A stretch of 46,411 nt of DNA from Clostridiales bacterium. GTDB lineage: Bacteria > Bacillota > Clostridia > Oscillospirales > UBA644. How positions within the stretch are numbered: the first letter of the stretch is position 1; every line of letters starts with the position of its first letter. The stretch lies in contig JAEEJJ010000075.1 in assembly GCA_016281805.1 (NCBI GenBank), positions 1 through 46,411 of the forward strand, in the 5' to 3' direction. Under the pieces are notes generated by a model. The model saw nothing but the letters and a program-made list of their open reading frames with translations. It had not been told where the DNA came from and made no database searches. Below are positions 17,460 to 46,241 of this stretch, piece after piece. A program made the position numbers and the translations under genes.

Positions 17460-17675
17460 TAAAATGCCTCCCAAAACATTGAATATATGCAGAGCATCAT
17501 ATGAAAACACATATAAGTCTCCGTGATTCAGTAGTTATTATCTACAATTTGTTTATTATAACATAAGAACTGTCAATTTGCAAGTAATATGTAAATAAAA
17601 TCAATATTTTTTCATTTTTTTCATTATTTATGTATTGATTCTGACGGTTTATTGCGAGAGTTGCGCATTTTGAAC

Positions 17676-40655: not shown

Positions 40656-41060
40656 TCACTGTTTTGTCATAAGGTCGCTCAGCTTTTTGCCGTAAAAGAA
40701 ATCGTGCACCATTTTATCGAATTCCGTCCACATCGGGAGAGTCTGACAGATTTCTTTTCTGGAACAGTCATTTGTCCCTGAAGCAAGACACGCAACCGAA
40801 TACATCGGTCCTTCCGTGATTTCCAGAATTTCTCCAACGGTATACTCTTCCGGCTTTCTGCGAAGTCTGTAACCTCCGCCTTTTCCGCTTGCCGCCTCGA
40901 CCAATCCACCAAAAACCATGTCTTTAACTATTATTTCAAGATATTTTTTTGATATTTCCTGCCTTTCGGCTATATCTTTTAACGGAATGAAATGTCCGTC
41001 GCCGTTTTCGGCAATGTCAAGCATAACTCTGATCGCATATCTTCCTCTTGTTGAAATCAT
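40656..41060 (-). CDS. Rrf2 family regulator (IscR/CymR-like, 3 Cys)
   Basis: STRGRYA, IAERQEISKKYLE, GKGGGY, C-x7-C-x5-C. Confidence 0.92.
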   Translation of the reverse strand: MISTRGRYAIRVMLDIAENGDGHFIPLKDIAERQEISKKYLEIIVKDMVFGGLVEAASGKGGGYRLRRKPEEYTVGEILEITEGPMYSVACLASGTNDCSRKEICQTLPMWTEFDKMVHDFFYGKKLSDLMTKQ

Positions 41061-41087: not shown

Positions 41088-41170
41088 ATTATACCACAAG
41101 GTGAATAGGTAAGTCAAGAGGAAAAAAAATTTTTTTACCTATTGACAAAATAGGTGAATAGGTGTATAAT
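41088..41170. promoter_or_regulatory. Divergent rrf2/iscS promoters with palindromic operator
   Basis: Plus TTGACA-17-TATAAT (41142-41170); minus TTGACT-18-TATAAT (41117-41088); ACCTATT-N5-AATAGGT at 41137-41155. Confidence 0.78.
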
Positions 41171-41202: not shown

Positions 41203-42387
41203 ATGATCTACGCAGATAATGCGGCAACAACAAAAATGAGCAGGAGAGCTCTCGAAACATTGGTTTCATTTAACGAAAAATTCTGGGGCAATCCCTCAAG
41301 TCTGTATACACACGGTCAGAATGCGAAGGAAGCACTCGAACAGGCGAGACGTGATATCGCTTCTTTGATCAACGCACAGCCCGGAGAAGTATATTTTACT
41401 TCCGGCGGGAGCGAATCTGATAATCAGGCGATCTTGTCAGCGGCCCAGACAGGGAAGAAGGCAGGGAAAAAGCACATCGTATCTACTGCATTCGAGCATC
41501 ATGCGGTCCTTCATACGCTTGAAAAACTGAAAAAAGAAGGCTTCGAGATCACACTTCTTGATGTTCATTCAAACGGAATCGTTAAAGCGGAAGATGTTGA
41601 GGCGGCGATAAGGGATGACACGTGTCTTGTTTCTGTAATGTATGCAAATAATGAGATCGGAACGATTCAGCCGATCAAAGAGATAGGCGCGATTTGTAAA
41701 AAAAGAGGTATTCCGTTTCATACTGATGCTGTTCAGGCAGTCGGGCATATTCCCATTGATGTTACCGGGGATAATATAGATATGCTTTCCGCTTCCGCAC
41801 ACAAATTTCACGGACCGAAAGGTGTCGGTTTTCTTTATGCGAAAAAAGGAATAAAGCTTTCCTCTCTCATAGAGGGCGGAGCTCAGGAGCGGGGAAAAAG
41901 AGCCGGTACGGAAAATGTTCCGGCAATAGCCGCTATGGCAGAGGCGTTGAAGGAATCGACCGGAAAAATAGCAGAAAAAACGGAATCTCTCATTTTAATG
42001 AGAAACAGGCTTATTAAAGGTATATCCGAAATCCCGCATTCATCTCTTAACGGCGACCCGGAAAACAGGCTTCCGGGAAATGTCAGCTTCTGTTTCGAGG
42101 GCATAGAAGGGGAAGCGTTGCTTTTACTTCTTGACGACAGAGGAATATGTGCGTCATCAGGTTCAGCGTGTACGTCCGGTTCGCTCGATCCGAGCCATGT
42201 CCTTCTTGCTATCGGCAGGGTCCACGATGTTGCTCACGGTTCTTTGAGGCTCAGCATAGATGATACAGTCACAGATGATGACGTTGCTTACATCGTCGCT
42301 TCCGTAAAAGAAGTAGTTGAATATCTGCGAGGCTTTTCTCCGATCTGGAGAGATCTTGTTTCAGGCAAAAAAGAGTTTATTCTGTAA
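41203..42387 (+). CDS. iscS: Cysteine desulfurase (IscS/NifS)
   Basis: DNAATT, HTDAVQ, SAHKFHGPKG, SSGSAC. Confidence 0.95.
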   Translation: MIYADNAATTKMSRRALETLVSFNEKFWGNPSSLYTHGQNAKEALEQARRDIASLINAQPGEVYFTSGGSESDNQAILSAAQTGKKAGKKHIVSTAFEHHAVLHTLEKLKKEGFEITLLDVHSNGIVKAEDVEAAIRDDTCLVSVMYANNEIGTIQPIKEIGAICKKRGIPFHTDAVQAVGHIPIDVTGDNIDMLSASAHKFHGPKGVGFLYAKKGIKLSSLIEGGAQERGKRAGTENVPAIAAMAEALKESTGKIAEKTESLILMRNRLIKGISEIPHSSLNGDPENRLPGNVSFCFEGIEGEALLLLLDDRGICASSGSACTSGSLDPSHVLLAIGRVHDVAHGSLRLSIDDTVTDDDVAYIVASVKEVVEYLRGFSPIWRDLVSGKKEFIL

Positions 42388-42400
42388 GGAGGTATTTTTT

Positions 42401-42784
42401 ATGGCATTATACAGTGAAAAAGTAATGGATCATTTCCGCAATCCGCGCAATGTCGGCATACTTGAAGATGCAAACGGTATCGGAGAGGTTGGAAACGCCA
42501 AATGCGGAGACATAATGAAAATGTATCTGAAAATAGAAGACGGCGTTGTTCAAGACGTGAAATTCGAAACATTCGGCTGCGGCAGCGCCATAGCCTCAAG
42601 CTCTATGGCAACCGAGCTCATAAAAGGCAAACCAGTAAGTGAAGTAAAGCAGCTTACAAACAAGGCAGTTGCCGAGGCACTTGACGGACTTCCCGCATAC
42701 AAAATGCATTGCAGCGTACTTGCCGAAGAGGCAATTCAGTCTGCACTGGAAGACTATCAAAAAAGAACAGGAAATAAAATATGA
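42401..42784 (+). CDS. iscU: Fe-S cluster scaffold IscU/NifU
   Basis: ATG 42401 with AAGGAGG; YSEKVMDHF.NPRNVG, CGD, FGC, KMHC. Confidence 0.95.
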   Translation: MALYSEKVMDHFRNPRNVGILEDANGIGEVGNAKCGDIMKMYLKIEDGVVQDVKFETFGCGSAIASSSMATELIKGKPVSEVKQLTNKAVAEALDGLPAYKMHCSVLAEEAIQSALEDYQKRTGNKI

Positions 42785-42795
42785 CATTTCTATGA

Positions 42796-42829
42796 ACCTA
42801 TTGACATAATAGGCGAATGATGTTATAAT
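42796..42829 (+). promoter_or_regulatory. Promoter of metY-cysK-cysE with second operator copy
   Basis: TTGACA-17-TATAAT (42801-42829) overlapped by ACCTATT-N5-AATAGGC. Confidence 0.8.
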
Positions 42830-42861
42830 GACCGCAAATTACTAAAACGGAGGCGAAAAAG

Positions 42862-42984
42862 ATGTTTTACGGTATCATATTCAGTAATAACTTCATGTGT
42901 TGTCGAAGGTTGTGCTCCCGGGCAGGCTGCTGTATCGAGACATATTCCGGCATGCAATTTCGCCTCGATATAAAATTTCGTTAA
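42862..42984 (+). CDS. Candidate Cys-rich leader peptide (40 aa)
   Basis: GGAGG RBS; MFYGIIFSNNFMCCRRLCSRAGCCIETYSGMQFRLDIKFR*; 5 Cys and 2 internal Met, upstream of sulfur amino-acid genes. Confidence 0.7.
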   Translation: MFYGIIFSNNFMCCRRLCSRAGCCIETYSGMQFRLDIKFR

Positions 42985-43010
42985 TGCGTTTTGCCTTGCG
43001 TATTTCAATG

Positions 43011-43042
43011 CCCGGGAGCTATTGTCAGGTTGCCGGGTTTTT
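43011..43042 (+). terminator. Candidate attenuator terminator
   Basis: CCCGG..CCGGG imperfect stem plus TTTTT; 5' arm can alternatively pair with 42914-42924. Confidence 0.6.
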
Positions 43043-43090
43043 ATGCTATATTTGAACATATTGAAATCAAGTTAATAAGAGGAATTTACA

Positions 43091-44371
43091 ATGAATAAAT
43101 ATAAATTTGAAACATTACAGCTTCACGTCGGTCAGGAAAATGCCGACCCCGCAACAGATGCGCGCGCTGTTCCCATTTATCAGACAACGTCATACGTTTT
43201 TCATAACAGCAAGCATGCCGCAGACCGTTTCGGTCTTGCCGATGCCGGCAATATATACGGCAGACTAACAAATTCCACGCAGGAAGTTCTTGAAAAGAGG
43301 ATAGCTGCGCTTGAAGGAGGAAGCGCTGCGCTTGCACTTGCTTCCGGCGCTGCGGCAATTACTTATACAATAGAAGCCCTTGCAGCAAACGGCGGTCATA
43401 TCGTTGCACAGAAAACCATATACGGCGGAACCTATAACCTGCTTGAACATACGTTGCCGCAATACGGGATCAAAACAACATTTGTCGATATTCACGACCT
43501 CAAAGAAGTCGAAGCTGCGATCAGCAACGATACGAGGGCGATCTTTCTTGAAACGCTCGGCAACCCGAACAGCGATATCCCGGATATAGACGCCGTTTCC
43601 GAAATAGCACACAGGCACGGAATTCCCGTTGTCATCGACAATACGTTCGGAACCCCGTATCTTATCAGACCTATTGAACACGGCGCGGATATAGTCGTTC
43701 ATTCCGCCACGAAATTTATAGGCGGTCACGGAACGACCCTGGGCGGCATTATTGTTGAGTCGGGAAAGTTTAACTGGAAAGACAGCGGCAAATATCCCAA
43801 TATATCAGAACCTAATCCAAGCTATCACGGCGTTTCTTTTTACGATGCAGTCGGACCGGCAGCTTTTGTCACTTTCATCAGAGCCATTCTCTTACGTGAT
43901 ACTGGTGCAGCAATATCGCCGTTTAACGCATTTCTGCTTTTGCAGGGCGTGGAAACTCTTTCGCTTCGTCTTGAAAGACATGCCGAAAACACAAAAAAGG
44001 TCGTTGAATTTTTAAGTAAGCATCCGAAGGTGGAAAAAGTCAATCATCCGTCTCTTCCGGACCATCCCGACCATGCGCTTTATGAAAAATATTTCCCGAA
44101 CGGCGGCGGATCGATCTTCACATTCGATATCCGCGGCGGACGTGACGAAGCATGGAAATTTATTGACAATCTTAAAATATTCTCTCTTCTCGCCAATGTC
44201 GCCGATGTAAAAAGCCTTGTTATCCATCCTGCGTCAACAACTCATTCGCAGCTTAACGAAAAAGAGCTTGAAGAACAAAATATCGGGCAAAACACAATCA
44301 GATTGTCTGTCGGCACGGAACATATCGATGATATTATCTCAGATCTCGAAAACGGTTTCCGGGCTATCTGA
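43091..44371 (+). CDS. metY: O-acetylhomoserine/O-acetylserine sulfhydrylase
   Basis: VPIYQTTSY, IYGRLTN, HSATKFIGGHG, LANVADVKSLVIHPASTTH. Confidence 0.9.
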   Translation: MNKYKFETLQLHVGQENADPATDARAVPIYQTTSYVFHNSKHAADRFGLADAGNIYGRLTNSTQEVLEKRIAALEGGSAALALASGAAAITYTIEALAANGGHIVAQKTIYGGTYNLLEHTLPQYGIKTTFVDIHDLKEVEAAISNDTRAIFLETLGNPNSDIPDIDAVSEIAHRHGIPVVIDNTFGTPYLIRPIEHGADIVVHSATKFIGGHGTTLGGIIVESGKFNWKDSGKYPNISEPNPSYHGVSFYDAVGPAAFVTFIRAILLRDTGAAISPFNAFLLLQGVETLSLRLERHAENTKKVVEFLSKHPKVEKVNHPSLPDHPDHALYEKYFPNGGGSIFTFDIRGGRDEAWKFIDNLKIFSLLANVADVKSLVIHPASTTHSQLNEKELEEQNIGQNTIRLSVGTEHIDDIISDLENGFRAI

Positions 44372-44391
44372 ACTTTTATGGGAGAAATACA

Positions 44392-45324
44392 ATGAAAAAT
44401 ATATATATGGGTATACTTGACTTGATCGGCAAAACACCTCTTGTCGAAATAACTAATATTGAAAAAAAACTCAGTCTTGATGCAAAGATTTTCGCAAAAC
44501 TCGAATACTTCAATCCGTCCGGAAGCGTTAAAGACCGTATCGCCAAAGCCATGATAGAAGATGCCGAACATAAGGGACTGCTGAAAAAAGGTTCGGTTAT
44601 CATAGAGCCCACGTCGGGCAATACCGGTATCGGACTTGCAGCGATCGGCGCCGCAAAAGGTTACCGCGTTATTCTGACGATGCCTGAAACCATGAGCGTT
44701 GAAAGAAGAAATATTCTTAAAGCATACGGAGCTGAAGTAGTGCTTACGGAAGGCGCAAAAGGTATGAAAGGCGCAATTCAGAAAGCCGAAGACCTCGCCC
44801 ATGAAATTCCCGGTGCATTTATCCCCGGTCAATTTGTAAATCCCGCAAATCCTGCAATCCATAAAGCCACAACAGGCCCAGAAATATGGAATGATACAGA
44901 CGGAGACGTCGATGTCTTTATCGCAGGCGTCGGAACAGGAGGAACGCTTACGGGAGTAGGGGAATATCTTAAAGAAAAAAATCCCTCTGTCCGGATCATA
45001 GCCGTTGAACCCGAAGATTCTCCGGTACTGTCTGAAGGAAAATCGGGAGCACATAAAATTCAGGGAATAGGGGCAGGGTTTGTTCCCGATGTGCTGAATA
45101 CAAGAATATTTGATGAAGTTCTTAAAATATCTAATCAGGATGCTTTTGAAACATCAAAACTTCTTGCAAAAAATGAAGGCATTTCCGTCGGTATTTCTTC
45201 AGGTGCGGCGCTGTATGCGGCAATAACCGTTGCAAAACGTCAGGAAAACAAAAATAAAAATATCGTTGCTCTTTTGCCTGACAGCGGTGACCGCTATTAT
45301 TCCACGCCTCTGTTTTCAGACTGA
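44392..45324 (+). CDS. cysK: Cysteine synthase A
   Basis: KLEYFNPSGSVKDR, PTSGNTG, GVGTGGT, HKIQGIGAG, PDSGDRY. Confidence 0.96.
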   Translation: MKNIYMGILDLIGKTPLVEITNIEKKLSLDAKIFAKLEYFNPSGSVKDRIAKAMIEDAEHKGLLKKGSVIIEPTSGNTGIGLAAIGAAKGYRVILTMPETMSVERRNILKAYGAEVVLTEGAKGMKGAIQKAEDLAHEIPGAFIPGQFVNPANPAIHKATTGPEIWNDTDGDVDVFIAGVGTGGTLTGVGEYLKEKNPSVRIIAVEPEDSPVLSEGKSGAHKIQGIGAGFVPDVLNTRIFDEVLKISNQDAFETSKLLAKNEGISVGISSGAALYAAITVAKRQENKNKNIVALLPDSGDRYYSTPLFSD

Positions 45325-45362: not shown

Positions 45363-46241
45363 ATGACAGACTTTGAAAAAGTAATGTGCAAACTTGATGA
45401 GATCGGCAGAAACTCTAAGCTTATTCACATTGAAAACGATAAAATGTTTCCCGATAAAAAAAAGATATTTGCAGTATTGCTTGATACTCTTGCTTTGCTC
45501 TTTCCCGGACATTATACTCCTCAGACGTCACATTCCGACAAGTCGGTTGCGGAGATCGTCTCCTCATCGCTTGCCGAGCAGATAGACAGGGTTTTGTCAT
45601 TAACAGGAAGAAAATCTGCCATTTCAGGCACTGAAATCGCAAAAAAATACATTGCAAGTCTGCCTGAACTGAAAGAAGTCCTTCTTACGGATATAGAGGC
45701 GCTTTATAAAGGCGATCCCGCGGCTGAATTACGAGATGAGGTAGTTACCTGCTACCCGGGATTTTTTGCAACAGCAGTATACAGAATAGCTCACGGTCTT
45801 TATGAAATGGACGTTCCCGTTATTCCGAGAATAATGACTGAATACGCTCACAGCAAGACAGGAATAGACATCCATCCCGGAGCATCTATCGGAAGCTATT
45901 TTTTCATTGACCACGGCACCGGCATAGTTATCGGAGAAACTACCGTGATCGGCTGCAATGTCAAGCTTTATCAGGGCGTAACTCTCGGCGCAAAGAGCTT
46001 TGAAAAAGATCAGGACGGAAATCCAGTCAAAAGACTGAAAAGGCATCCCAATATCGGCAATAATGTAATTATTTATGCGAATGCCACAATACTCGGAGGC
46101 AGAACTTTCATAGGCGATAACTGCGTTATAGGAGCAAGCACGTGGATCGTCGAGTCTGTTCCTGCGGGAAGCACGGTCCTTTATTCATCAAATACTGAAA
46201 AAATGCTTCAGCTTTGGGGCGATAACGGTTCCGGTATATAA
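45363..46241 (+). CDS. cysE: Serine O-acetyltransferase
   Basis: GDPAA, YPG, GIDIHPGA, FIDHGTGIVIGET, KRHP, hexapeptide repeats. Confidence 0.92.
   Translation: MTDFEKVMCKLDEIGRNSKLIHIENDKMFPDKKKIFAVLLDTLALLFPGHYTPQTSHSDKSVAEIVSSSLAEQIDRVLSLTGRKSAISGTEIAKKYIASLPELKEVLLTDIEALYKGDPAAELRDEVVTCYPGFFATAVYRIAHGLYEMDVPVIPRIMTEYAHSKTGIDIHPGASIGSYFFIDHGTGIVIGETTVIGCNVKLYQGVTLGAKSFEKDQDGNPVKRLKRHPNIGNNVIIYANATILGGRTFIGDNCVIGASTWIVESVPAGSTVLYSSNTEKMLQLWGDNGSGI

Follow-up and report, generated by a model that had tools for sequence, protein, structure and literature searches.

The trp, his, leu, thr, ilv and pheA operons of Enterobacteria are controlled by classical leader-peptide transcription attenuators, and the textbook control of methionine and cysteine genes in Firmicutes is by SAM riboswitches, T-boxes and CymR. 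TnaC and SpeFL arrest at a stop codon, and plant CGS1, which shares its enzyme superfamily and pathway with MetY, is a SAM-dependent arrest peptide. TnaC and SpeFL are reported to be metabolite-dependent arrest peptides responding to Trp (PMC8429421) and ornithine (bioRxiv 10.1101/604074), respectively, and the S-box (SAM-I) riboswitch, the Cys and Met T-boxes and CymR govern Met/Cys genes in Firmicutes (PMC2566862, PMC2940859). A His leader peptide is predicted before hisS/hisZ in Bacilli (Naville & Gautheret 2010, PMC2965389). In mycobacteria, one report describes a 'Cys ribulon', in which leaderless polycysteine sORFs precede several sulfur operons and the stalled ribosome is proposed to remodel the mRNA (Canestrari et al., bioRxiv 10.1101/834739).

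The window, a 46,411-nucleotide stretch of a Clostridiales bacterium (contig JAEEJJ010000075.1), carries on its forward strand metY for O-acetylhomoserine/O-acetylserine sulfhydrylase (43091–44371; TIGR01326, 633.9 bits against a cut-off of 495.1), cysK for cysteine synthase A (44392–45324; TIGR01139, 458.8 bits against 350.95) and a cysE-like gene (45363–46241), whose serine O-acetyltransferase-like product scores below the cut-offs of both TIGR01172 (164.3 bits; cut-off 210.65) and the EpsC model (145.2; cut-off 150). The metY–cysK–cysE leader holds a short ORF that sequence comparison assigns, as a divergent member, to a large family of clostridial upstream ORFs of about 18 codons, and the chances are slightly better than even that this leader is a ribosome-mediated transcription attenuator sensing Met/Cys decoding.

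This leader resembles the classical attenuators in its leader ORF led by a Shine-Dalgarno (SD) sequence, its codons for the end product, its terminator with a U tract and an alternative pairing through the 5′ arm of the terminator, and it resembles trpL in a helix sequestering the ribosome-binding site (RBS) of the leader ORF. It differs from them in that most family members have only one to three sensor codons, ahead of which stand an invariant rare CGA and an extended conserved peptide, that the stop codon lies far beyond the 5′ strand of the antiterminator (region 2), that Met and Cys are combined, that the lineage is clostridial and that most members lack a terminator. Like the mycobacterial 'Cys ribulon', the family places unannotated sORFs with Cys codons before several sulfur-metabolism operons, but the mycobacterial sORFs are leaderless, contain Cys runs and unmask the RBS of the next gene, whereas those described here are SD-led and have an invariant CGA-AUG and a conserved peptide, and the version in the window would act through a terminator. 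With no more than two Cys codons in a row, the ORF of the window falls outside the definition of the mycobacterial polycysteine sORFs. Like TnaC, SpeFL and CGS1, the family places a short conserved peptide of fixed length before a metabolic operon, with a candidate stall site at or beside the stop codon in many members; it differs in showing no sequence similarity to them and in that its copy in the window lacks half the motif. Compared with the S-box, T-box and CymR systems, the target genes and the output, premature termination versus read-through, are the same, but the sensor would be the translating ribosome rather than an RNA aptamer or a tRNA-binding leader. The Bacilli His leader (PMC2965389) is likewise a 'regular' leader peptide in Firmicutes at a site where a T-box would be expected, but it concerns another amino acid and another class and has a run of His codons and no conserved peptide motif.

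A sigma-70-type promoter, TTGACA-17-TATAAT with a TG extension (42801–42829; 12 of 12 consensus matches), precedes the leader on the forward strand and is kept in genomes G009, G010 and G001. It would place the transcript start near 42836, leaving about 26 nt of 5′ UTR ahead of the leader ORF. The leader ORF, MFYGIIFSNNFMCCRRLCSRAGCCIETYSGMQFRLDIKFR (42862–42984, 40 codons plus stop), is homologous to a family with the motif L-[LV]-R-x-N-F-R-x-G-R-M, and its SD sequence GGAGG (42849–42853), 8 nt before the ATG, is invariant in four aligned leaders. Cys is encoded at codons 13, 14, 18, 23 and 24, that is, five times in 40 codons, and there are two internal Met codons. The candidate sensor codons are AUG UGU UGU CGA AGG (M12 C13 C14 R15 R16; 42895–42909), with CGA-AGG at the position of the invariant CGA-AUG of the family. 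At 42908 a T, giving AUG instead of the AGG of the window, is found in G009 and in RNA-library contigs from a G009-like strain; in these contigs, which carry no end information, the leader and metY can share one contig.

Random sequence of the same composition gives at least five Cys in 39 codons with a probability of 0.017, and the coding frequency of the genome gives 0.0003. The chance that the frame opened by a given ATG runs for 40 codons without a stop is 0.07, a perfect inverted repeat of at least 11 nt occurs in 16 of 2000 mononucleotide shuffles of 42830–43090, and the fold stability of the whole leader equals that of shuffles (z = 0.08). Since these results are modest, the sequence by itself is only moderately unusual and the weight rests on conservation in other genomes. 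The leader DNA is found in G009, G010 and G001 with the ORF in frame and SD-led and with a synonymous Leu change from TTG to CTA, while the flanks diverge. The M-C-C codons are kept in four genomes, and C23 and C24 are absent from G010 and G001. With five Cys in 40 residues, the ORF could also encode a RiPP precursor or a small Cys-rich protein that functions on its own, but this is extremely improbable: nothing beyond M-C-C and the structure-bound TGC is kept in the relatives, many family members are 18-residue peptides devoid of Cys, no maturase gene is nearby (the neighbours are nifU on the 5′ side and metY on the 3′ side), and no Pfam or NCBIfam family or protein homologue was found. The homologue search with the 40-residue type-B alignment returned no candidate, which leaves absence unproven, small ORFs being rarely called.

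Downstream of the ORF lies an intrinsic-terminator-like hairpin, GCCCGG.AGCU-loop-GGUU.CCGGGU followed by U5 (43010–43042, forward strand; stem 43010–43038, −13.6 kcal/mol; T tract 43038–43042), which a simple terminator scan of the window did not list; the stem is broken by a G/G mismatch. Its 5′ arm, region 3 (UGCCCGGGAGC, 43009–43019), was found by inverted-repeat search and is also the 3′ strand of the antiterminator. Region 2 (GCUCCCGGGCA, 42914–42924), which comprises codons C18-S19-R20-A21, forms 11 bp with it at −26.4 kcal/mol, and at the DNA level GCTCCCGGGCA and TGCCCGGGAGC at these two places make an inverted repeat of 11 nt with 100% identity. A further inverted repeat of 9 nt, absent from the first-pass annotation, joins GAGGCGAAA (42850–42858) at the SD sequence to TTTCGCCTC (42958–42966) inside the ORF; in the RNA it gives an SD:anti-SD helix that is present in the minimum-free-energy fold, with the anti-SD strand UUUCGCCUC covering codons 33–35. 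This pairing persists with altered flanks as GAGGCGCA/UGCGCCUC in G010 and G001 and as GAGGCGAAC/GUUCGCCUC in G183. TATCGAG (42933–42939) and CTCGATA (42964–42970) form a 7-nt inverted repeat. Another inverted repeat, ATTTCAAT (43002–43009) with ATTGAAAT (43060–43067), likewise absent from the first-pass annotation, is missing in G009 and was dropped as a functional element.

Most of this architecture had been proposed in the first-pass annotation. The GGAGG-led 40-codon ORF with its MCC, C and CC codons is as described there to within one base, the 11-nt complementarity is perfect and kept in relatives, and the hairpin with its U tract, placed at 43011–43042, was found one base wider. The TATCGAG/CTCGATA stem is present but is not conserved as such, and its 3′ arm belongs to the conserved SD:anti-SD helix. 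As to the later Cys codons, which had been said to overlap the antiterminator arm, C18 does lie inside the antiterminator strand, but C23 and C24 do not recur in G010 and G001.

Leaders with the terminator/antiterminator extension (type B) number only about 13, including that of the window. The complementarity of regions 2 and 3 is present in all 13, with 87.3% of 142 cells paired and a G-C to A-U change in G188. Covariation of the antiterminator is minimal, with this type of evidence confined to one compensatory change, and the shuffle controls are not significant. Since region 2 also encodes S-R-A, its conservation has two possible causes. All 13 type-B leaders have an equivalent terminator hairpin; a run of four or more U goes with it in 9 of 12 leaders examined, and the U tracts of G010 and G001 are weak. 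Region 2 starts at AUG+8 or AUG+9 in 10 of the 13, and in the window it begins 11–14 nt after C13/C14. In the model such a spacing puts the start of region 2 at the leading edge of a ribosome whose A site holds the AUG, and it is compatible with A-site stalling. Equilibrium folds vary across the 13 leaders, four preferring the antiterminator without a ribosome and the group of the window always preferring the terminator, and a comparison of forced terminator and forced antiterminator energies at four ribosome positions gave no uniform pattern. Folds computed with the ribosome footprint masked were heterogeneous as well.

The window thus has an SD-led leader ORF, an enrichment of Met/Cys codons, a terminator and a mutually exclusive antiterminator, and the translation of the ORF, the pause site, the signal sensed and the direction of switching are inferred in the following model. 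After transcription from the strong promoter at 42801–42829, a ribosome would load at the GGAGG-led ORF, and the speed of its passage over codons 12–16 (AUG UGU UGU CGA AGG; CGA AUG in all relatives) would decide whether 42914–42924 pairs with 43009–43019, a pairing that would exclude the terminator hairpin 43010–43038 and its U5. In the preferred reading, a shortage of Met- or Cys-tRNA would hold the ribosome with one of the sensor codons in the A site and its front edge at about 42910–42916, leaving region 2 exposed and its upstream partners covered. The 11-bp antiterminator would then form, and RNA polymerase would continue into metY–cysK–cysE. When supply is good, the ribosome would reach the stop codon at 42982, the SD:anti-SD helix (42850–42858/42958–42966) would shut the ORF domain and block reloading, and the terminator would form, so that transcripts would end near 43042. 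The occurrence of the ORF family before metY, metQNI-type transporter genes and cysK would make it a ribosome-run sulfur-amino-acid regulon.

Several points count against such an attenuator. The stop codon lies 58 nt beyond region 2, so that a terminating ribosome, unlike that of trp, leaves region 2 unmasked, and the separation of regions 2 and 3 under plenty is unexplained by the model. A stall at C18, C23 or C24 would cover region 2. A sensor of hungry codons needs no conserved peptide of 10–12 residues, the copy in the window has AGG where AUG is invariant, and 28 of the 93 family members stop directly after R-M.

The family was delimited with strict criteria as SD-led sORFs with an in-frame CGAATG upstream of metY, and 93 of the 149 metY orthologues compared within the order have one. 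CGAATG occurs 113 times on the forward strand and 7 times on the opposite strand in 44,391 nt of metY upstream regions. The conserved stretch of the motif L-[LV]-R-x-N-F-R-x-G-R-M spans 10–12 residues, and the length from the start to R-M is 18 codons in 28 of 30 members. The last two motif codons are CGA ATG in all 52 distinct sequences when the anchor leaves out those codons, whereas all six Arg codons occur at the two other invariant Arg positions, all four Gly codons at the Gly position, and the Leu codons also drift synonymously. Such drift, read from the alignments, indicates translation of the canonical family and shows selection on its peptide. R-M is followed by Cys in 45 of the 93 members, by a stop codon in 28 (UGA in 26) and by other codons in 20. 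Some members have no Cys codon at all, and many are just 18 residues long, leaving one Met codon as the only such codon universal across the family. The window ORF retains only N-F…R and the downstream L-x-S-R-A of the canonical motif; in its lineage R-x-G is exchanged for M-C-C(-C), so that extra Met/Cys codons stand at the same spot.

A pattern search of 401 genomes gave 76 matches in 66 of them, against one for the reversed control, and the matches away from metY precede genes for NlpA/MetQ, MetN (ABC plus NIL domains), a permease and CysK. In a GTDB-wide scan of 80 loci, the first downstream ORF encodes MetY in 62, a MetQ-like protein in 9 and CysK in 2. The carriers belong to Oscillospiraceae, Ruminococcaceae and Acutalibacteraceae, and records titled Lachnospiraceae, Christensenella and Mogibacterium also carry it; one isolate record, of a Ruminococcaceae bacterium, has a canonical upstream ORF in front of metY–cysK. 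The predicted regulon is methionine-centred (metY, metQNI) with cysK in addition. A Cys codon after R-M shows no association with a downstream cysK (19/12 versus 5/5; Fisher p = 0.71). CGA is a rare Arg codon (5.7% of Arg codons), and the CGA-ATG codon pair is not avoided in the genes of G000 (22 observed, 20.4 expected), and so nothing marks it as inherently slow to decode. Leader ORFs of the classical kind, rich in Met/Cys and followed by a clear terminator, also occur in relatives (MMMCMYMNMCICMCM is one), and sORFs with at least six M/C in 12 residues number 17 on the forward and none on the reverse strand, which makes ribosome-mediated attenuation in a clostridial lineage credible. The strict hairpin with at least four U is present in only 10 of the 93 family leaders, and most of the family must therefore work in another way. 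A peptide profile, A3, gave 26 weak matches (E 0.01–0.65) in the 46 genomes of the family; these were dismissed, the start being missing or the context unrelated.

These comparisons bear on the remaining claims of the first-pass annotation, which had proposed a cysteine-sensing attenuator in a clostridial lineage. Conservation of the ORF, of M-C-C and of the 2:3 complementarity in relatives bears it out, but the covariation it asked for comes to a single compensatory change. The sensing of Cys agrees with the retention of M-C-C, but what is conserved across the family is a peptide motif ending in CGA AUG, with Cys following in 45 of 93. An attenuator in this lineage gains from the Met/Cys-rich leader ORFs with terminators in relatives, but the regulon is centred on methionine, with cysK added. 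No T-box or SAM element was found in the window or in 60 related metY upstream regions, as had been expected.

A conserved peptide of fixed length raises the possibility of a regulatory arrest peptide, in which the nascent …L-L-R-x-N-F-R-x-G-R-M would halt its own ribosome at CGA-AUG-UGN from within the exit tunnel, either constitutively or in dependence on a small molecule (methionine, SAM, cysteine, O-acetylhomoserine or the like). With the AUG in the P site, most of region 2 would be covered and termination would follow, so that the end product would mean OFF; in short leaders, the arrest would block or unmask the RBS of metY. Selection over about 12 residues with free synonymous drift in the canonical family, the 18 codons from start to R-M in 28 of 30, the invariant codons at the stall site and the 28 of 93 members that end in R-M-stop (26 with UGA), resembling the stop-codon arrests of TnaC and SpeFL, all speak for such an arrest, and placing the AUG in the P site makes the terminator the favoured fold in G277, G296 and G339. 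However, the lineage of the window lacks R-x-G, and G000 also lacks the Met, and yet the whole switch is kept; if stalling switched the operon OFF, the extra Met/Cys codons that replace the motif would work in the wrong direction; and the arrest is a prediction to which no leader- or arrest-peptide model of NCBIfam or Pfam corresponds. As an account of the leader, such an arrest is thus rather unlikely. The complementarity between the footprint of an RM-stalled ribosome and the RBS of metY exceeds that of shuffles only weakly (−6.8 versus −6.1 kcal/mol, p = 0.056), with p ≤ 0.05 in 7 of 72 leaders.

The invariance of CGAAUG(UG) at the nucleotide level could instead reflect a ligand- or protein-binding RNA, that is, a new riboswitch or the target of an RNA-binding protein, with the ORF a by-product of a conserved RNA such as CGAAUGUG. 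In agreement with this, CGAAUG pairs with CACAUUYG, located in the start region of the upstream ORF or just before the metY SD sequence, in 30 of 93 leaders (chance expectation about 9), a leader being counted when its pairing is matched or beaten by at most 5 of 100 shuffles. But every occurrence of the motif is in frame within an ORF led by an SD sequence, the conservation upstream of it is at the amino-acid rather than the nucleotide level, the subtypes have no conserved structured core in common and the fold z-score is 0.08, so that a binding RNA is quite improbable. Rfam is likewise negative: T-box and SAM families are absent from the window at the gathering score and from 42700–43200 at E values up to 10, where snoR20a (E 7.9) and RAGATH-22 (E 1) are chance-level matches, and none of the 60 related metY upstream regions of the order contains an Rfam element. 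The leader- and arrest-peptide models of NCBIfam and Pfam match neither the leader ORF nor the family. Since Rfam 15, Pfam, NCBIfam, the protein collection and the literature searched gave nothing alike, the CGA-AUG leader family appears to be new and undescribed, and annotation currently misses it.

These observations lead to a tentative hypothesis, less probable than not by a clear distance, that the L-[LV]-R-x-N-F-R-x-G-R(CGA)-M(AUG)-UGN upstream ORF encodes a bacterial sensory nascent peptide of a new kind, which reads the sulfur-amino-acid state with the ribosome, either by making the decoding of one AUG/UGY codon hypersensitive to Met- or Cys-tRNA or because methionine, SAM or a precursor binds within the exit tunnel. 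It would run a Met/Cys 'ribulon' (metY, cysK, metQNI) in gut Clostridia instead of S-box and T-box RNAs, and the window would represent a lineage in which the sensor is coupled to a terminator/antiterminator and has in part been remodelled by additional Met/Cys codons. Gut and rumen Clostridia appear to use a translated leader where a SAM riboswitch, a T-box or CymR would be expected, and such a family explains the seeming lack of known regulators before metY. The conserved peptide with a rare-codon pair, CGA-AUG, that never varies has no counterpart in classical attenuators. The element is compact, about 60 nt, and directly testable, and it bears on the sensing of amino acids by the ribosome at single codons and on a bacterial counterpart to plant CGS1. 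In G000, a metY paralogue (contig C49, 43% identity) has no leader ORF in front, and a whole-genome scan for M/C-rich or CGAATG-bearing sORFs did not find a second credible family member; an M/C-rich sORF at about 17461–17512 on the reverse strand precedes an ABC ATPase gene for polysaccharide/teichoic-acid export and is probably a chance occurrence.

A palindromic box, CCTATTGACATAATAGG (42797–42813), overlaps the −35 element of the metY promoter and is a candidate operator. A box of the same form, CCTA-N9-TAGG, lies at 41138–41154, where it overlaps the −35 element of the nifS–nifU promoter (41142–41170), which is 86% identical to the metY promoter over 34 nt. A gene for an Rrf2-family regulator, IscR/CymR-like, is divergent from nifS–nifU (40656–41060, reverse strand; TIGR00738 Rrf2 superfamily, 111.5 bits against a cut-off of 73.3; the IscR and CymR equivalog models, at 95.6 and 82.3, each stay under their own cut-offs), and its product is a candidate binder of these boxes. 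Control purely at the DNA level, with this or a paralogous Rrf2-type repressor acting on CCTA-N9-TAGG and the leader being incidental or affecting mRNA stability, would fit the adjoining Rrf2 gene, the sharing of the box by the nifS and metY promoters and its presence in 42 of 149 metY upstream regions (shuffled mean 0.62; other spacings 0–10). It is improbable, however, since it leaves the conserved in-frame upstream ORF, the invariant CGA AUG and the 13 terminator/antiterminator leaders unaccounted for. The box and the upstream ORF occur together and so look like two layers rather than alternatives, the box over the metY −35 element probably adding repressor control to the ribosome-mediated attenuator as the second layer.

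The leader of metY (43091–44371; TIGR01326, 634 bits) lies within a 306-nt stretch between nifU and metY that reads as non-coding. Family-model matches identify an Rrf2-family regulator on the minus strand (40656–41060), nifS (41203–42387) and a clostridial-type nifU ending at 42784, and metY is followed by cysK (44392–45324; TIGR01139, 459 bits) and a serine acetyltransferase-like gene (45363–46241) scoring under the cysE cut-off. A sigma-70-type promoter with 12/12 matches and a TG extension (42801–42829) precedes the Shine-Dalgarno (SD) sequence GGAGG (42849–42853), a 40-codon leader ORF (42862–42984) and a hairpin with five U residues (43010–43042), which a simple terminator scan of the window misses. 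The features that the first-pass annotation saw in this ~260-nt leader are thus all present, and a repeat search recovers both of its stems as well as a 9-nt SD:anti-SD pair (42850–42858/42958–42966). An inverted repeat of at least 11 nt is reached by 16 of 2000 shuffles of the leader, five Cys codons in the ORF have P = 0.017, and the fold stability of the whole leader equals that of shuffles (z = 0.08); considered in isolation, these features are only moderately improbable. Rfam gives no match in the entire window at gathering score, no meaningful match in the leader up to E 10, and no riboswitch or T-box in any of 60 related metY leaders, which speaks against a T-box or SAM riboswitch of the kind that the annotation names as usual for these genes in Firmicutes. 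An 8-nt inverted repeat (43002–43009/43060–43067) flanks the terminator and is not kept in G009, a closely related genome.

A search of 60 related genomes with the 306-nt leader as the query has shown that it recurs in G009 (97% identity over the full length), G010 (77% over 137 nt) and G001 (76% over 79 nt), with the ORF in frame and of near-equal length in all three. The peptide reads MFYGIIFSNNFMCCRRLCSRAG… in the window, MIGYTTLNGNIFMCCRMLCSRD… in G010 and …KIYMCCCRMLCSRD… in G001, and the Leu17 codon changes from TTG to CTA at two synonymous positions. The promoter, the SD sequence, M-C-C and the GCUCCCGGG, CGCCUCGAUA and CCCGGGAGC blocks are kept while the remainder drifts. Pairing of the SD:anti-SD helix is maintained despite altered flanks, being GAGGCGAAA/UUUCGCCUC in the window's own genome (G000), GAGGCGCA/UGCGCCUC in G010 and G001, and GAGGCGAAC/GUUCGCCUC in G183. 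G010 and G001 have only a weak U tract. In G013 (contig C5, locus L061), MetY is 92% identical with the same nifU–metY arrangement and promoter position, and the leader is only ~90 nt long without uORF or terminator, as if the attenuator had been lost recently.

Of the 401 sampled genomes of the order, 150 encode a MetY orthologue at E 1e-150 or better, and the 600 nt upstream were taken for 149 of them, six clipped by contig ends and the remaining orthologue lying at a contig start. An SD-led ORF of at most 75 codons that ends before metY and contains an in-frame CGAATG within 300 nt is found in 93 of the 149 regions, and seven more pass if a weaker SD sequence or overlap with metY is allowed. 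In 44,391 nt, the sense strand has 113 copies of CGAATG and the opposite strand 7. About half of the qualifying uORFs share the motif …F-E-K-L-[LV]-R-x-N-F-R-x-G-R-M, and the start codon lies 18 codons from R-M in 28 of 30 aligned uORFs. Among 49 distinct sequences, every one of the six Arg codons occurs at the two invariant Arg positions further upstream, and every one of the four Gly codons at the Gly position; the uORF thus appears to be translated, and its peptide is under selection. With an anchor that excludes the last two codons, these are CGA ATG in all 52 distinct sequences. In G000, which encodes tRNA-Arg(ACG), CGA is rarely used for Arg (5.7% of Arg codons). After AUG, 45 of the 93 uORFs have a Cys codon, 28 a stop (UGA in 26 of them) and 20 another codon. 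The window's ORF aligns with this family without gaps, N-F-[M-C-C]-R-[R]-L-C-S-R-A against N-F-[R-C-G]-R-[M]-L-Y-S-R-A of G339, and has CGAAGG in place of CGAATG. The differing position, 42908, is G in G000 (AGG, Arg) and T (AUG) in 52/52 canonical uORFs and 12/13 leaders of the window's subtype, including G009, as well as in RNA-library contigs; the G reflects strain variation or an error in assembling this MAG. The Cys codons on which the first-pass annotation centred are kept as M-C-C in close relatives; the conserved core of the family is R(CGA)-M(AUG), set in a conserved peptide that serves a Met/Cys regulon, and the Cys codons have been added in this lineage.

In thirteen leaders, termed type-B (G000, G009, G010, G001, G137, G277, G183, G284, G296, G210, G339, G188 and G337), the ORF extends beyond R-M by x-x-S-R-A…, and this extension coincides with the strand (C)UCCCGGGC(A). 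All have (U)GYCCGGGAGC ~95–118 nt downstream, forming the 5' arm of a hairpin that runs into U residues. A strict terminator (hairpin of -8 kcal/mol or better with at least four U) follows the uORF in only 10 of the 93 leaders, nine of them type-B. The antiterminator 5' strand (region 2, 42914–42924) and the terminator 5' arm (region 3, 43009–43019) form gap-free blocks in a MAFFT alignment of type-B leaders, and their 11-bp helix is predicted at -26.4 kcal/mol, against -13.6 kcal/mol for the terminator hairpin. Pairing holds in 87.3% of 142 cells; two of the pairs are G-U, and G188 has the one double change (G-C to A-U). Covariation in the 13 leaders is not significant against shuffle controls because the helix barely varies, and the pairing is therefore called conserved complementarity, short of proven covariation. 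The alignment of relatives upholds the ORF and the complementarity of the first-pass annotation, with minimal covariation in the antiterminator.

Region 2 starts 11–14 nt past C13/C14, and at AUG+8/9 in 10 of the 13 type-B leaders. This start would correspond to the front edge of a ribosome whose P site is occupied by CGA and whose A site faces the sensor codon. In the window's lineage, M-C-C(-C) is substituted for R-x-G at exactly the sensor spot, and relatives carry Met/Cys-rich leader ORFs of the textbook kind, among them MMMCMYMNMCICMCM and MMEMCMWACCMCMAFC, together with strong terminators; small ORFs with at least six Met/Cys per 12 residues number 17 on the sense strand and none on the reverse strand. 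From the substitution and these relatives, the most likely functional event is pausing when Met/Cys is short, in which a ribosome held at the sensor codons would allow read-through into metY, and the SD:anti-SD helix would limit ribosome loading to one round. A conserved peptide is needless for such a hungry-codon sensor, and the ORF stops 58 nt past region 2, so that region 2 has no obvious cover under plenty. The main rival, a true and possibly ligand-dependent arrest peptide that would cover region 2 with AUG in the P site and so cause termination, is rather improbable. There is a real chance that the uORF encodes a new sensory nascent peptide. A ribosome stalled at C18, C23 or C24 would act in the opposite sense, against shortage-dependent read-through, and masked equilibrium folds vary across the 13 type-B leaders. 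Genes of G000 show no avoidance of the CGA-AUG pair, and the Cys tail is not associated with cysK downstream (p = 0.71). Judged from comparative sequence evidence, ribosome-mediated attenuation in a clostridial lineage, as the annotation proposed, is somewhat favoured; the kind of control seems right and the Cys-centred scope too narrow.

Eight loci have Met/Cys-rich ORFs, each followed by a strong hairpin and U tract upstream of metY (L093 in G214, L082 in G186, L103 in G252, L132 in G242, L075 in G238, L201 in G178, L207 in G193 and L206 in G145), and in five a canonical R-M uORF comes next in tandem, so that two sensors lie in series. A 17-codon Met/Cys-rich ORF in the window (17461–17512, minus strand; MCFHMMLCIYSMFWEAF), downstream of a TTGACA-17-TATAAT promoter and with its stop overlapping the start of a TagH/Wzt-like exporter ATPase, was rejected as a sulfur-linked leader; no tie to sulfur metabolism was found, and it is probably a chance occurrence.

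Since a strict terminator is so infrequent, most of the family must act by something other than a terminator. Structures involving the metY ribosome-binding site are one possibility: in 30 of the 93 leaders, pairing between the CGAAUGUG site and a CACAUUYG element is matched by ≤5/100 shuffles (~9 expected), and complementarity of the ribosome footprint to the metY ribosome-binding site is only marginal. The pattern AAYTTYMGNNNNGGNCGAATG gives 76 matches in 66 of the 401 genomes, and its reverse a single match. Among 26 matches away from metY, with Pfam run on ten representative downstream proteins, the products include NlpA/MetQ lipoproteins, MetN (ABC and NIL domains), an ABC permease and a PLP-dependent enzyme of the PALP family whose N-terminal sequence is CysK-like. 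In G373, G417 and G303 (L240–L242), the uORF precedes NMT1/THI5-like ABC binding proteins, after which the first two have an enolase-superfamily enzyme (of these loci, Pfam was run on L240); the connection of this operon to methionine is not obvious. At L238 (G238, contig C57), the gene behind a canonical uORF with an R-M-stop end encodes a 511-aa protein without a Pfam family, possibly a further Met/Cys regulon member. A GTDB-wide scan with one genome per species gives at least 120 stretches; for 80 loci analysed among the matches listed, the nearest ORF downstream encodes MetY in 62, a MetQ-like protein in 9, CysK in 2 and a protein of unknown kind in 5, and 2 loci have none. The matches listed are overwhelmingly from Clostridia (Oscillospiraceae, Ruminococcaceae, Acutalibacteraceae, several Lachnospiraceae, a Christensenella and a Mogibacterium), and a few odd taxon labels may be binning errors. 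The uORF peptides match no Pfam or NCBIfam model, the 40-aa version has no relative in the protein collection searched, and no leader of this kind is described in the part of the literature reached by full-text searching.

Contigs of a G009-like strain are found in RNA-library assemblies of two studies. In three runs of one study, they begin at the end of nifU or in the promoter region, cross the terminator and reach into metY (42511–43829, 42793–44500 and 42762–44421); as assembled contigs, these give neither ends nor strand and are not proof of transcription. A 17-bp palindrome, CCTA-N9-TAGG, covers the -35 elements of both metY (42797–42813) and nifS–nifU (41138–41154), and occurs in 42 of the 149 metY upstream regions of the order against a shuffled mean of 0.62, suggesting a candidate operator and second control layer, perhaps bound by the adjacent Rrf2 regulator. 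At times (G026, G031, G020 and G320), a second copy lies directly past the -10 element.
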